A stretch of DNA of 61,705 bases, filler included, from Bdellovibrionota bacterium (GTDB lineage: Bacteria; Bdellovibrionota; Bdellovibrionia; Bdellovibrionales; JAEYZS01): the NCBI GenBank assembly GCA_963169515.1. It is 8 parts of 8 records of this genome, joined end to end, with 100 filler letters (N's around TTAATTAATTAA, not from the genome) between each part and the next. Parts side by side here need not be neighbours in the genome. Positions count along the whole stretch, not along the records: positions 12,871 to 19,250 come from CAUJEF010000012.1; positions 19,351 to 29,660 come from CAUJEF010000014.1; 6 more parts are not named here. One strand, given 5' to 3'. This document shows, in pieces, positions 15,001-21,000 of this stretch. Position 1 is the first letter of the stretch, and every line of letters begins with the position of its first letter. The position numbers are program-made.

Positions 15001-18000
15001 GGCCTTGTCCCCACGACAGAGTGGAAGAAAAATACTTTAGGGGAAGAGTGGCAGCCCGGGGAAAACTTGAGCAATGCCATAGGCCAGGGGTTCTTCCTGA
15101 CGACCCCACTGCAACTTGCACTTGTATTTTCAGGAATTGCAAATGATGGCCCCGTTTACCAGCCACACATCGTAAGTAAAATGCTGGATGTTGATGGGAA
15201 ACTATTAAGAGAAATTACGCCTGAACTAAAATTTGACCCAACAGTTTCTGGAAGTGTCCATATCGACAAAGCAAACTATGACATTGTTAAGCGAGGCTTG
15301 TACAACGTGGCAAATGGTGCGCGAGGTACTGCAAAATGGCTCAAGGTTCCGGGGGTGGAGCTTGCCGGAAAAACTGGAACCGTTCAATTATTTAGCCTTT
15401 CGGCAGATGAGGTTTTCAAGAAATGCCAGAGTCGCCCACTCAATCAACGACATCATGGTTGGTTTGCATCCTATGCTCCAGCCGATGATCCGCAGGTTGT
15501 TGTTGTCGTACTTGCCGAACACTCGTGTTCAGGTTCCGGCGGGGCCGGCCCAGTTGCTCGAGATATTCTTGATGCATATTCAAAAAAATATCTAAAAGAA
15601 CGGGTCGAAAGGTACCTTGCGGCCCATAAGAAAAATGGAACGCCGGCTGCTGCAACCGAAACATCACCACCAGTCCCCCAACCCGAGGAAAGCAATGAAA
15701 TCGCTCCAGATTGAAAACCGTACACTTTTCAAAAAATTCGATTTGAATTTGATTTTTGTTATCGTTGCTATTTCGATCATCGGCCTGATCAACCTATTCA
15801 GCGCGACCCACGACGTTCAGAATACCACAAACCAATTGGATCAGATTTTTTTGACCCAGGTAGTTTGGTTTGCCGCTGGCTTTTCGATCTTTGGTATTCT
15901 AACAATTCTTGACTACAAAATTTTATCAAAATTGGCCTATGTGATGTATGGACTGAACGTGTTGGCACTTGCTGCAGTCCCCATTATTGGAAAATCATTT
16001 TACGGTGCAAAACGCTGGATTGACCTTGGTTTTTTTAAATATCAGCCATCAGAAACAATGAAAATTATTTTGATTATACTTTTGGCAAAAATATTTTCTC
16101 AAAAATCATACCCACATGGACTAGGGTTCAAGAATTTAATTCTTCCATTGATTCTGATAATGATTCCATTTTCACTCACTGTGAAACAGCCTGATTTGGG
16201 AACAGGAATGATGATTTTATTTTCATCATTTTCCATTATATTTTTTGTTGGCATAAAGCGAAATGTCTTAATTACAGCCTTGGCCGTTATTCTTGTTGTA
16301 GTCCCCGTAACTTGGAAGTTTGGTCTCAAGGATTACCAGAAAAACCGAATTCACACGTTTATGGACCCGAATACGGACCCCCGTGGAGCAGGATATAACA
16401 GTATTCAGTCAAAAATTGCCGTCGGTAGCGGCAAATTCTTTGGAAAGGGTTTTCGAAAGGGTACTCAGTCTCAGCTTAACTTTCTGCCAGAACATCATAC
16501 GGATTTTATTTTCAGTGTGCTATCTGAAGAAAACGGATTCGTCGGCAGCGTAACCACGTTACTTTTATTCGTAATATTGATTGTGATTAGCTTAAAAATC
16601 GCATCGCAAGCACGCGATAAGTTTGGCGCGCTAATTGTAGTAGGGGGAGCTTCGATTGTGTTCTGGCATGCGTTCATCAACATTGGGATGGTTATTGGGT
16701 TACTGCCTATTGTCGGCATTCCTTTGCCGTTGATGTCTTATGGTGGTTCAATAATGATAACAACAATGACGTGCCTTGGTCTTATATCCAGCGTTTCGAT
16801 AAGAAAATTTATTTTTTAAGAAACTTTTCGAGCGCTAAGCATTCTTTTATAGGTGACCTTTCAGGACAGATAAAATGTTATCCTTTGGAACATTTCCAAC
16901 AATCTGTTCAATCTCTTCACCGTTTTTAAAAAGAATCATAGTTGGAATACCGCGTACACCGTATTTTGACGGGGCCTCAGGATTTTCATCCACATTCACT
17001 TTTACGACCTGGACCTTTCCTTGAAGCTCTTGGGCAACCTCTTCCAATTTAGGACCTAGGGCTTGGCAGGGGCCACACCACTCTGCCCAAAAATCGACAA
17101 GAACTGGAACATTTGATTTTAAAACTTGGGATTCAAATTCTGCGTCAGTAACGGGTTTTGTAAACCTAGCCATGTTTATAGACTCCTGCATAAAAAAATT
17201 TAACTGCATCTATTAAATCAAACAAACTCGAGATTTGCGATTAAATATTTCTTAAAAAATGTGGTTACAATTTGACCATCGTCAAGGCTCATCCTTTGTC
17301 CAGATTTCTTTCATATTTTCTACTAGATTCCGATAGTTATATCAGCAGTTATGCAAAAAAAAGAAATAACAATCCTCATCATAGACGACGAGGCCTCTGT
17401 TGGAAAAGCGATCAAAGAGGTTCTCGAAAAGGATGGCTTCACCACCCTTGTGTACACTCATCCAGAGCACATTTTTTCTACACTTAAGCTCCGACCAATC
17501 CAAGCTTTCATCATCGACTGTATGCTGCCAAAAATGTCAGGCGTTGATGTAGCAAAAAAAATTAAAGAGAGCGTACCCAATGCCATCTTTATTTTTATGA
17601 GTGGTATTTATCAAGACAAGTCCTTCATCAAAGATACATTCCAAAAAACGGGAGCAAAGCACTTTTTAGAAAAGCCGTTTACGCTCGAAAAGATACTTGA
17701 AGTTGTTCATGATGCTCTTGGCGATCTGATCGAACAAGAGGGCGAACCCCTCGATGAACTCCTTTTCAATCCGAACGCATCTCCAAATGAAAAGCTTGAT
17801 GCAATTAGCCACACAAATTCTGTTCACGGTTTTGATTTGCCAAGAATCTTTAACCTTCTTATGAATCCATCTATCAGTGGAATTCTGCATGTAACCTCTC
17901 CGAAAAAAGAACGCTCCAGTATTCACTTTTTAAATGGGGCGATCGTACGCGTTGATATCAACGACCCAAAATCTTACTTTGGCGCCTTACTGATCGACAA

Positions 18001-21000
18001 AAACTATATCACACCCGAAGAAATCGATCTCGTCCTTACACAGAAAAATACAAAAAAACTTGGCGAGCGCTTGGTTGATTCCAACTTGATCAGTCCACAC
18101 GTCATCGGAATTATTAACACCGAGCAATTGGCCCTTCGCCTTTCACGCCTGGTTCAAAATCTATCTTACGAAATGAAATTTGAAAAATTCGAAACAAAAG
18201 AGGGGGAAACAAAGATTGATCGAAATATCTTATTCCGATTTATCAGCGAATGGTTATCTTCAAAACTAACGCCTGAGTGGTTGAAGGCAATTTATATTCC
18301 ATTCATGGACAAACGCATTGTAAAGGCCGCCTTCTATTCTGATATTTCTCCAATATATAATTTATATCCAATGAACAAGGCCCCGAAGCTCTTGCAGACA
18401 GCTCTTTCGAATTCATCCGTGGAACAACTTTTTGCAAAAAACCAATGGGATGACGAGATCGTTTTAAAATGCATTCACTTTCTGATTATTACTGAAAGTG
18501 TCGCTTTTGATAAAACGATAAATTCAAAAGATGAAAACTCGCACCGCTTGCGCTTACAAAAAATAAAAAAGGACATGGAAGGTCAAAACCTATTTGAAAT
18601 TTTAGGCCTGGATGCCAAATCAAAAATTAAAGAAATTAAAAAGAATTATTATGAGCTATCAAAGATATTTCATCCAGATAAATTAAGTACAAGTGCCCCT
18701 ACAGAGATCAAAGAGCTCACTAATTTTATTTTTGCAAAAATCTCCAAGTCCTATGAAGTTCTTAGCAACGAACAAACAAAAGCAAATTACCTTAAAGAGC
18801 TTGAACATGGAGAAGCAGAAAAAATTCTGGAATCAGAATCATTATTTGACGAAGGGAAGTCCCTTTTAAGCTCGAATCAAGCTGTAAAAGCACTGGCCAT
18901 TTTGGAACAAGCGATGAAGCTTCGACCGCCGACGTCCGAGATGCGTTTGTATCATCTATGGGCGAAAGTATTATCACCTGCTGAAAATATGGAAGAACAT
19001 CTTCGATCCATTGAAACGGGACTGAATAAAATACCACCAGAAGATCGACACAACGCTTACTATTATTTCGTAAAGGGTCTTTATGCAAAACAGCTGGGCG
19101 ATTTCGAGCAAGCGAGCCGTCACCTGAAGCACGCATGTTCGCTCGTTGCAAACTTTAAAGAAGCAAAGCGCGAATTAAACCTCGTAGAGCTTCAGATGAA
19201 GAGCAACAAGAAAATCGACATTTTTAAGGCAGACCTAAAAGATGTTGTTGNNNNNNNNNNNNNNNNNNNNNNNNNNNNNNNNNNNNNNNNNNNNTTAATT
19301 AATTAANNNNNNNNNNNNNNNNNNNNNNNNNNNNNNNNNNNNNNNNNNNNAAAAATCTCCGAAAAGTATCAAGAAGATACCAGGAGACCACTATGCTTCT
19401 ACAGGGCGATTTGCAGGCAGTGTTTGACGCGCTCTACACAATGGGCGTGATTGACCCGATTTTGCAAAAAGATTGGAAGAAGTTTGACGACTTGGAACAT
19501 GACACAAGACGGATCGAAACAGTTGTGGCAAAGGTAAATAAATGTTCCGGGGATATTCAAAAAATAATTGGACATTTGAAGCAGTATGATACCGAAACAC
19601 TCGAGTATCTCGCTATGGAGGTCGCGCGTGAGTTTGCTGACTTTTACGCAAGAAAAGACATTCATTAAAATTCTAGGCCTGGCTCTGGTTTGTACTTTCT
19701 TTAGCGAAGCTGCAGTTGCAGATTGGGAAATCGATTTATCCCGACGCCGCAGGCAAACCCAAAAGTCAACAGAGACAGCGGGACAACAAACTGCAGCCGA
19801 GCAAACATTGAGTTTTGTAGATAAAATTATTCCAAGCCAAGGATATAGCCAAGACATCGTAGTTTTGAATACAGACAAGGGGTTTTTACCGGCCACCCTT
19901 CATTTGAAAAGGGGAGGCAAATACACAATTCACGTCGTCAACGTAAACGACAAAGAAAAGAACACAAGCTTCATCATGGATGCGTTTAAAGAAAGCCATG
20001 CGACGTACTTTGGTCAGATTAAATCATTTACAATTAATCCAGACAAAGATGGAATTTATAACTTTCAGTGTCCGGAGACTTCTGTCGAAGGGCGCGTCGT
20101 TATCTACTCTGACGACAAGAAATCAAGAGCTTTAGCTGGCGACAAGGAGTAAGTCATGTCTGACGAGGCGAATGTATTTAGCGCCGCGATTCAGAACTTC
20201 TTAGCGCCTATCGCAGATCTTTTGGCAGATTCAACAGTGACAGAAGTCTTGATCAATGGACCTCATAATATTTTTGTAGAGCGTAATGGATTTTTGACTA
20301 AGGTCAGTCATCAATTTACAAATGAAGATGAGCTTCAAGCGGCAGTAAATTCGATCGCACAAAGCGTGAATCGTGTCATCAATGATAAGGAGCCGCAGTT
20401 AGATGCACGCTTACCCGACGGGTCCCGTATTCATGCCGTGCTTCCGCCGATTGCGCGCAATGGGACTACGGTTAGTATTCGCAAATTTTCGAACGCTAAA
20501 ATGACCTTGAAGGAATATATTCAGAGTGGAGCAATCTCGATTGATGCCGCGCAATTTTTGGATTTGTGCGTATTTTTGGGGAAAAACATAATTGTCAGCG
20601 GCGGGACGGGTTCGGGTAAAACAACATTGCTATCTGTTTTGACAAATAGAACGCCCAAAGGAAAGCGTATAATTTTGATCGAAGATTCGTCTGAGCTGCA
20701 AATTGACTATGAGCACGTGGTGCGCTTTGAAACTCGTCAGGAAGACCTGCGGGGTAATGGCGAGATAACAATGCAGCATTTGTTAAAATCTTCGCTTCGC
20801 CTGCGCCCGGATCGAATTATTGTTGGCGAAGTGCGGGGATCAGAGGCGTTAGAATTAATGAACGCCATGAACACGGGCCACAACGGCAGCATGGGTACGA
20901 TTCATGCAAACTCTCCAGACGATGCAATTGTTAGGCTTGAGGGTCTTGCAATGAGCGGTGACGCTAAGTTGAGCGAAAAGGTCATTCGTCATCAGCTGTC

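Follow-up and report, generated by a model that had tools for sequence, protein, structure and literature searches.

The gene at 17351..19249 (+) of the window, by which we mean the whole 61,705-nucleotide stretch of DNA that was analysed, encodes a protein that, judged by alignment, is a full-length homologue of Bd2402 of Bdellovibrio bacteriovorus (CAE80219.1, P0282; 30% identity over 660 columns, E 9e-97), the homology running end to end from the receiver through MshEN_N to the C-terminal region. Bd2402 of strain HD100 has been described as a c-di-GMP binder of architecture REC-MshEN_N-UNK (Wang et al, 2016, PMC5013675; KD 0.4 uM according to the footnote, 0.04 according to the table, citing Rotem 2016). 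The "unknown" part of Bd2402 is a decayed J-domain followed by TPRs, which gives a name to the output half of this published receptor for c-di-GMP, and most other lineages in the order retain a working-looking J-domain behind the receiver and the MshEN pocket. We propose, at about even odds, that the protein encoded here is a class C J-domain protein (JDP) with two signal inputs, which would recruit the single DnaK of the cell to a client held by its TPR and PATAN surfaces. The features on which the argument draws are as follows.

17351..19249 (+), gene for the REC-PATAN[MshEN_N]-wHTH-J-TPR protein; 641 aa, 633 codons inside the window
17372..17707 (+), receiver domain, aa 8-119 (Pfam Response_reg, E 1.9e-17)
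17516-17518 (+), codon of the phospho-acceptor D56 in the receiver domain
17825..18220 (+), PATAN/DUF4388 domain, aa ~159-290, split by a helical insertion (Pfam, model)
17969..18130 (+), MshEN_N four-helix module, putatively c-di-GMP binding, aa ~207-260 (profile and fold matches, Bd2402 alignment)
18278..18520 (+), winged-helix-like segment, aa ~310-390 (weak VIA matches)
18587..18790 (+), J-domain, aa 413-480 (Pfam DnaJ, conservation)
18671-18679 (+), HPD motif of the J-domain, H441-P442-D443 (translation)
18818..19210 (+), TPR-like helical repeats, aa ~490-620 (Pfam below cut-off, model, conservation)
19223..19249 (+), first part of a conserved hydrophobic/basic C-terminal tail (tails of the homologue alignment; low pLDDT)
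16847..17173 (-), thioredoxin gene trxA, divergent, the conserved upstream neighbour in the main group (Pfam, synteny)
12910..16819 (+), mreC (partial), mreD-like, pbp2 and rodA (conserved synteny; the oppositely oriented trxA lies between)

The open reading frame extends into the contig end. A complete version of the same protein is on record at 641 aa (P0002), and the end of C58, another contig of this genome, holds the stop codon together with the convergent neighbour gene known from relatives; just 8 residues are therefore missing, in agreement with the genome-wide survey's note, which had described a gene cut by the contig end with about 8 residues absent. That note had also placed a receiver, a PATAN/DUF4388 domain, a J-domain and TPRs in one chain, an arrangement borne out by Pfam, the translation and an AlphaFold model (mean pLDDT 91.5, pTM 0.78); the pTM of the model suggests that the domains pack together in the full protein. 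Two parts were absent from the note, the MshEN_N module (~207-260) and the winged-helix-like segment (~310-390). A promoter and terminator scan gave matches at chance level. Three metatranscriptomes contributed four fragments (151-206 bases, depth 2-3), which are silent on expression level and strand.

The receiver carries the acidic pocket, phospho-accepting aspartate, S/T and lysine of a phosphorylatable response regulator (D12-D13-E14, D56, S84 and K108, with C57 following the aspartate), and its fold matches are to receiver domains, with Z values reaching 20 at an rmsd of 1.3-1.5. The residues assigned earlier thus stand at D13, D56, S84 and K108, while "D14" is really E14 within the triad D12-D13-E14. 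The DUF4388 match covers aa 159-234 (E 3e-9) and in relatives extends over 159-282. Fold searches with the whole model returned receiver domains as the sole matches, and the middle part searched alone gave none in Foldseek at E<=0.001 and a best VIA Z of 5.8; a solved PATAN core was not found by these searches, which says nothing of a new fold. The J-domain scores well above threshold (E 2.5e-12, 47.1 bits vs a cut-off of 27.8), its helix II is basic (K430, K431, K438), and the HPD triad is present at 441-443 as previously noted. With HPD, K431 and K438 conserved, the J-domain internal and neither a G/F region nor a zinc finger nor DnaJ_C detected by Pfam, the protein has the features of a class C JDP. 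Pfam TPR matches at 566-625 fall under the cut-off, and the region contains the conserved W537 and P-P-E-D-R-H 562-567. The C-terminal tail is a possible membrane anchor.

The helices inserted in PATAN, four in number, form a tandem repeat with homology to MshE 1-64. Profile searches matched the c-di-GMP domains of PilF and MshE (5HTL, E 1.4e-4); Foldseek superposed 5htl on the module with rmsd 1.8 over 59 columns and prob 1.00 but E 0.33, VIA gave Z 4.0 (rmsd 2.2 over 57), and the module aligns with the published Bd2402 site. Its characteristic residues are F210 G211, I225, L229, K236 L237 G238, I252, N256 and Q259, and S248-P249-H250 is invariant. Measured against the MshE motif (R9 L10 G11 L25 L29 Q32 R38 L39 G40 L54 L58 Q61), nine positions are kept or conservative (F210, G211, I225, L229, K236, L237, G238, I252, Q259) and Y209, K232 and N256 are changed. 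Residue by residue, this copy differs from MshE at R9 (Y), G18 (N), Q32 (K), R38 (K), G47 (N) and L58 (N); Bd2402, which binds c-di-GMP, likewise differs at R9, Q32 and G47 but retains G18, R38 and L58. Pfam MshEN does not match the module in this protein, and that model is reported to miss c-di-GMP-binding helices. This copy probably binds c-di-GMP. The genome has 5 GGDEF matches.

A homologue search returned 119 proteins at E<=1e-3, reproducing the earlier count. Among the best 87 of these, position 56 is D in 70 and E in 16, K108 is found in 86, and H441, P442 and D443 in 82, 85 and 82, respectively. A wider survey of 243 family representatives included a main group (136), a clade around Bd2402 (62) and a second-copy clade (45). 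In the main group HPD is present in 128/136, G211 with G238 in 132/136 and both in 126/136; the full receiver site is found in 128/136 and D56E in 7/136. Mean pair identity there is 0.37 for the receiver, 0.44 for MshEN and 0.40 for J, against 0.20-0.31 for the other parts. The second-copy clade keeps HPD and helix II in 41/45 and the MshEN glycine pair in 0/45, the Bd2402 clade has HPD in 0/62, and a sister genus combines D56E with a broken acidic pocket; each module is thus dispensable somewhere. Where HPD is lost the J region decays throughout (pair identity 0.16), indicating that J is under selection where it is retained. The near-full-length named loci of HPD-bearing type were all from MAGs (42/42, with a search pattern that required HP), and the same Pfam set is present in Myxococcota clusters. 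A genome scan for relatives worked with smaller alignments as query; with a single query protein it found none.

These counts bear on two claims of the survey's note. The proposal of a DnaK recruiter conserved in Bdellovibrio is not supported, since HPD is found in 0/62 representatives of the clade to which Bd2402 belongs together with the named Bdellovibrio strains in culture, and the sister genus with D56E argues against phosphorylation as an obligatory switch.

Bd2402 shares with this protein its length, domain order, D56, MshEN glycines, SPH, TPR and tail, but lacks HPD and has no Pfam DnaJ match on record. It lies at a locus with SpoIIE, STAS-like and PAS-Hpt genes, whereas the present gene lies beside trxA and falls outside the Bd2402 clade; the two are probably paralogues rather than positional orthologues, with Bd2402 derived from a second locus (support 75, a value that neither establishes nor rejects paralogy). 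In a sample of 10 rows from which the J and MshEN columns had been taken out, the Bd2402 clade is monophyletic (100/99).

The genome holds one full Hsp70, and 106/111 genomes searched in the order have at most one Hsp70 match; a dedicated paralogue tracking the HPD-bearing lineages was searched for in vain. Complex prediction for the J-TPR part with DnaK scored 0.53 (best of three controls 0.00), with runs agreeing in at least 89% of contacts and partner pLDDT of at least 79. The complex-score mark is reached by 116/157 solved and 2/215 mismatched pairs, and scores of 0.60 or below among pairs reaching it comprise 18/157 solved pairs and both mismatches. Since J:DnaK is a textbook pair, the predicted complex may be memory, and the models lend weak support to a J-TPR:DnaK contact. 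The J-domain of this protein very probably works.

Our analysis establishes the architecture, the conservation and the homology to Bd2402, while binding has been published only for relatives (c-di-GMP by Bd2402, DnaK by MXAN_1145). According to the model, the protein would be cytoplasmic and D56 would be phosphorylated by an unlinked kinase, with c-di-GMP binding the MshEN_N helices inserted in PATAN. Both inputs would set either the location of the protein or whether its J-domain is free; the PATAN and TPR surfaces would bind one particular client complex, which DnaK would remodel once its ATP hydrolysis is triggered by the HPD-bearing J-domain. Whether phosphorylation and c-di-GMP gate chaperone action we consider an evenly balanced question; if they do, bacteria can direct Hsp70 to a target on signal. 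As to the client, our tentative guess is a complex of polar motility or of the attack phase. It is also conceivable, though we would not favour it, that the protein is a coincidence detector in which switching DnaK onto a chosen complex needs both phosphorylation and c-di-GMP, a design that would go back to the ancestor of the Bdellovibrionales and has look-alikes among Myxococcota, reciprocal loss having later produced a J-less c-di-GMP scaffold (Bd2402) and a phospho-only J-protein. Two-component and second-messenger signalling in bacteria would then have Hsp70 activation among its direct outputs. Natural variation provides built-in controls, ranging from proteins with all three modules to ones that lack J, MshEN or the receiver or that carry D56E. 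The survey's phospho-switchable J-protein acting on Hsp70 survives in part: the intact, conserved receiver, the J-domain, the one DnaK and the weak model support agree with it, but it had overlooked the c-di-GMP module as well as the relationship to Bd2402.

The strongest competing explanation is that the core function is that of a scaffold controlled by c-di-GMP and phosphorylation, working through PATAN and TPR contacts in the way that Bd2402 has to, in which the J-domain is an ungated accessory for assembly or recycling of the complex. It would account for the Bd2402 clade, whose 62 representatives conserve receiver, PATAN, MshEN and TPR (0.35-0.56) despite a dead J, whose genomes show one listed copy, and where the trxA locus order persists without this gene in 3/5 genomes checked; moreover, in cyanobacterial PixE a PATAN domain by itself serves as output. 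However, 128/136 main-group and 41/45 second-copy representatives retain HPD and helix II, more conservation than a mere accessory would lead one to expect, and we regard this explanation as rather unlikely.

Less probable still is the version in the survey's note, a phosphorylation-only switch that would direct DnaK to the gliding motor or type IV pilus. In Synechocystis, PATAN domains bind PilB/PilC, DnaK1 binding to PixG and PilB is described in PMC13710413 (mLife 2026), this genome encodes a PilB-type ATPase, and attack phase brings a 12-fold induction of Bd2402. The M. xanthus JDP SgmC (MXAN_1106), with SglK as its predicted partner, is needed for pilus motility and has a J-domain that by eye resembles those of this family. 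Against this, the version takes no account of the conserved MshEN, the sister genus carries D56E, and no pilus family was found among 24 neighbour-cluster representatives scanned. A transposon mutant of Bd2402 shows normal attachment and predation, bearing in mind that Bd2402 lacks HPD; its mini-screen fitness was 1.3-4.7 (attachment 1.77, rounding 1.20; under a single condition of the full screen, 0.41), whereas pilB and pilC mutants were near 0.

A role in the elongasome or envelope (MreB/PBP2/RodA, LptF) is suggested by position: trxA lies upstream in this window and, for the family proper, in 18/40 loci fetched, 17 of those 18 show rodA in view and most have lptF downstream. The gene nevertheless forms its own unit, pointing away from trxA and towards the gene that follows, the order of its neighbours occurs without it as described above, and other family copies sit at the SpoIIE/STAS-like/PAS-Hpt locus, where a PAS-Hpt gene adjoins them, making such a role very improbable. 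No kinase was seen beside the present gene, and a pseudo-receiver gene downstream has no Pfam match. A DNA-binding response regulator, as suggested by weak VIA matches of the segment to winged-helix/RRE domains (Z 4-6), "CbpA-like" source names and the RAST label of Bd2402, is the least credible reading, since the winged-helix-like segment is the least conserved (main-group mean pair identity 0.20 for aa 345-390), the helix that would serve for recognition has no basic character, and the J-domain is the most likely source of the CbpA names, to which the alignment with CbpA is confined.

Among known systems, the PatA-type regulators PixG, PixE and PilG of cyanobacteria share a receiver and a PATAN/DUF4388 domain with a helical insertion, but have the reverse domain order, lack J-domain and TPR and are tied to chemosensory operons. 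Membership of this class was rejected, the receiver here being N-terminal and the neighbours scanned containing no chemosensory family. M. xanthus SopA proved on checking not to be a REC-PATAN-MshEN protein. The main and supplement text of Malinverni 2023 mention neither receiver nor DUF4388, and the CLAPP preprint and the Leptospira paper held no relevant content. The PilZ-DnaK chaperones CsdK1/CsdK2, with CdbS, of the related predator M. xanthus likewise link c-di-GMP and Hsp70 (PMC10313047), but there the signal module (PilZ) lies on the DnaK side rather than on a J-protein and no receiver is described. A further likeness is to Myxococcus MXAN_1145, which is listed with an MshEN_N sequence and reported as a JDP binding MxDnaK2; unlike in this protein, its MshEN_N starts near residue 66, too early for a receiver to fit in ahead of it. 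MXAN_1145 and SgmC, both class C JDPs, use specialised DnaK paralogues, whereas genomes of this family have one DnaK.

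The query gene lies at the end of a contig, in a window that is a string of contigs separated by N spacers:

17351..19249, + strand, gene of the query protein, at the end of the contig at 12871-19250

ORF, Pfam and translation checks bore out what the genome-wide survey's note describes, namely the open reading frame, four Pfam domains and the individual residues, save that residue 14, listed there as Asp, translates as Glu. A database entry is identical to the query protein (641 aa), and C58, another contig of the same genome, opens on its reverse strand with the final bases and stop codon of a lysine-rich end; it also holds the convergent neighbour gene known from relatives. 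Because the AlphaFold model of the query has a pLDDT of 91.5 and a pTM of 0.78, and relatives can be aligned with it from end to end, the gene is whole and not a chimera.

Residues 207-260 form two helix pairs within the PATAN domain, a module absent from the survey's note. When a profile of aa 131-392 built from 60 sequences was run against the PDB, 14 of 15 matches were c-di-GMP-binding MshEN domains, among them Thermus PilF (E 4.5e-15) and Vibrio MshE (5HTL; E 1.4e-4). Foldseek overlaid 5HTL on the modelled aa 131-392 part at 1.8 A over 59 columns with a probability of 1.00, but with an E of 0.33; a VIA comparison of the same pair gave a Z of 4.0, and the winged-helix-like segment that follows the module was matched weakly (Z 4-6, VIA). 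Measured against the 53-residue MshEN_N motif of Wang et al. 2016 (PMC5013675), the query differs at R9, Q32 and L58; both glycines are still present, as are the final Gln and all five of the main hydrophobic positions.

One relative is already on record. In the supplement of PMC5013675, Bd2402 of Bdellovibrio bacteriovorus (CAE80219) is entered as REC-MshEN_N-UNK, and c-di-GMP binding is attributed to Rotem 2016 at 0.4 uM in a footnote versus 0.04 in the table. This accession is database record P0282, which contains the published Bd2402 segment and, over 660 columns, shares 30% identity with the query (E 9e-97); its J region lacks the HPD triad. 'UNK' is therefore what remains of PATAN, followed by the winged helix, a J-domain that has decayed, and the TPRs. 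According to supplement rows of PMC3627812 and PMC6561027, Bd2402 expression is 12-fold up in attack phase. For its transposon mutant, PMC6561027 gives full-screen fitness values of 0.41 and 0.95 and mini-screen values of 1.3-4.7, with attachment at 1.77 and rounding at 1.20; pilB and pilC mutants are near zero there.

To follow the modules across the family, 471 partly redundant sequences (338 of 376 fetched proteins and 133 of 140 loci) were reduced to 248 representatives at 70% identity, and five outgroup or receiver-less rows were removed. Groups were taken from a FastTree tree that included the trait columns, with the Bd2402 clade over-sampled. In the main group (n=136), HPD was present in 128 members, the glycine pair (G211 and G238) in 132 and both in 126; the full receiver site was found in 128 and D56E in 7. 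The Bd2402 clade (n=62) had HPD in none, the glycine pair in 61 and D56 in 62, and the second-copy clade (n=45) had HPD in 41, the glycine pair in none and D56 in 45. An IQ-TREE analysis of 43 rows omitting the MshEN and J columns recovered the Bd2402 clade (10/10, support 100/99) and grouped seven of eight second-copy rows (99/100), leaving the deep branching order unresolved. HPD was absent from all 64 named loci, which come from Bdellovibrio strains and from MAGs within the order; in four of them the match ends before it. Within its own family, the genus nearest to the query carries D56E and a broken acidic pocket. S248-P249-H250 (window 18092-18100), in the second MshEN repeat, is invariant and is retained in 31/31 core second-copy rows even though the c-di-GMP glycines are gone; we propose that it may be a structural or partner-binding site.

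The query family with its c-di-GMP pocket, and class C J-domain proteins with PATAN/MshEN in Myxococcus, are already known. A receiver-J or MshEN-J fusion was not found in the titles and abstract openings of the literature searched, although censuses of regulator outputs or bacterial J-domain proteins may list the pair; as a Bdellovibrio gene, Bd2402 appeared there only in Wang 2016, at listing level, and the portions of text and supplement seen of PMC10410713 make no mention of receivers. As far as that literature reaches, the intact three-module form and the reciprocal decay are undescribed.

Distribution was counted by hand with three candidates scored per genome, so that distant relatives may be missed. 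Among 107 other genomes of the order, 92 had a match covering the receiver, 10, all of genus g3, only a match beginning after it, and 5 single-domain matches only; a family member is also present in the only other genome of the class that was covered. The g3 form (L061:5999-7471, L062-L064; ~490 aa) is without receiver and HPD, and its first MshEN repeat is near-canonical, with R, G, L, L and Q all there; on sequence it appears reduced to a c-di-GMP-TPR adaptor. Across 292 genomes of other classes, E<=1e-28 was reached only in family f21 (11 of 13), where two loci encode 750-770-aa proteins of query type, the one scanned being REC-DUF4388-DnaJ-TPR. Three of the top five ESM Atlas clusters (77, 75 and 109 members) combine receiver, PatA_N and DnaJ, with Myxococcota the commonest phylum, a cluster-level lead from domain sets rather than alignment. 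Given the f21 proteins and these clusters, the architecture extends beyond Bdellovibrionales. The f21 loci (L065:5614-7866, L066, L067, L068), from another class of the phylum, hold both protein forms, distant to the query; the receiver-less one is DUF4388-DnaJ-TPR (475-512 aa), and one such gene adjoins trxA.

The source genome has one Hsp70, five GGDEF matches and a PilB-type ATPase. M. xanthus MXAN_1145 is reported to combine MshEN_N with a J-domain and to bind MxDnaK2 (10.1101/2023.06.19.545549; PMC11019930, supplement rows). A complex predicted for DnaK and the J-TPR part scored 0.53 versus 0.00 for the best control, which is weak support and may merely reflect J:DnaK pairs already solved. 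We put at about even the chance that the query is a J-protein with two inputs that brings DnaK to a client it holds. It is distinctly less probable that the protein is a signalling scaffold whose J-domain is ungated. A phospho-only pilus model is improbable. Published work links the J-domain protein SgmC of M. xanthus to pilus motility (10.64898/2026.08.28.747804) and describes PATAN binding to PilB in Synechocystis (10.1101/2021.06.11.447907) and DnaK1 binding to both PixG and PilB (PMC13710413). No pilus family was found among 24 neighbour-cluster representatives scanned, drawn from the larger clusters. A TadA/CpaF-like ATPase (20156-21271) and then a histidine kinase (22874-24433), both identified by eye, sit on the next contig and so are not neighbours of the query gene.

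The query gene and those at 18 of 40 fetched loci are divergent from trxA, mostly behind mreCD-pbp2-rodA. Such loci are usually convergent with a pseudo-receiver gene, with lptF beyond:

L039:4994-5803, and C58:25050-25829 in the query's own genome, convergent, receiver-like pseudo-receiver gene

Its product is missing the usual receiver active site, had no match in a Pfam scan and belongs to an Atlas cluster of 67 (Bdellovibrionota). The gene stays beside trxA even without the J gene and is a possible partner of the query protein. In three of five family-f2 genomes trxA and the pseudo-receiver gene are adjacent, with no family gene found between them; in the other two, trxA lies outside the stretch fetched. 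Bd2402-type and second copies adjoin genes for SpoIIE-HAMP, a small STAS-like protein (a by-eye label; Pfam without match) and PAS-Hpt. Upstream of L054-L057, L069 and L072, a FecR-like protein, the SpoIIE-HAMP phosphatase, the small STAS-like gene and the PAS-Hpt protein are conserved; beside Bd2402 this signalling cluster is the Bd2403/Bd2404 region, a partner-switching-like module and a candidate phosphodonor. Both second-locus clades may form one side of a branch (support 75). The simplest history is a duplication after which the second copy lost MshEN or J reciprocally, the first copy being lost toward cultured Bdellovibrio.

C57, directly after the phospho-acceptor Asp (window 17519-17521), is kept in 85 of 87 relatives. 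With the gene divergent from thioredoxin (trxA, 16847-17173), a redox input through this cysteine is conceivable; against it, the Bd2402 clade, which does not adjoin trxA, retains the equivalent Cys in 59 of its 62 representatives.
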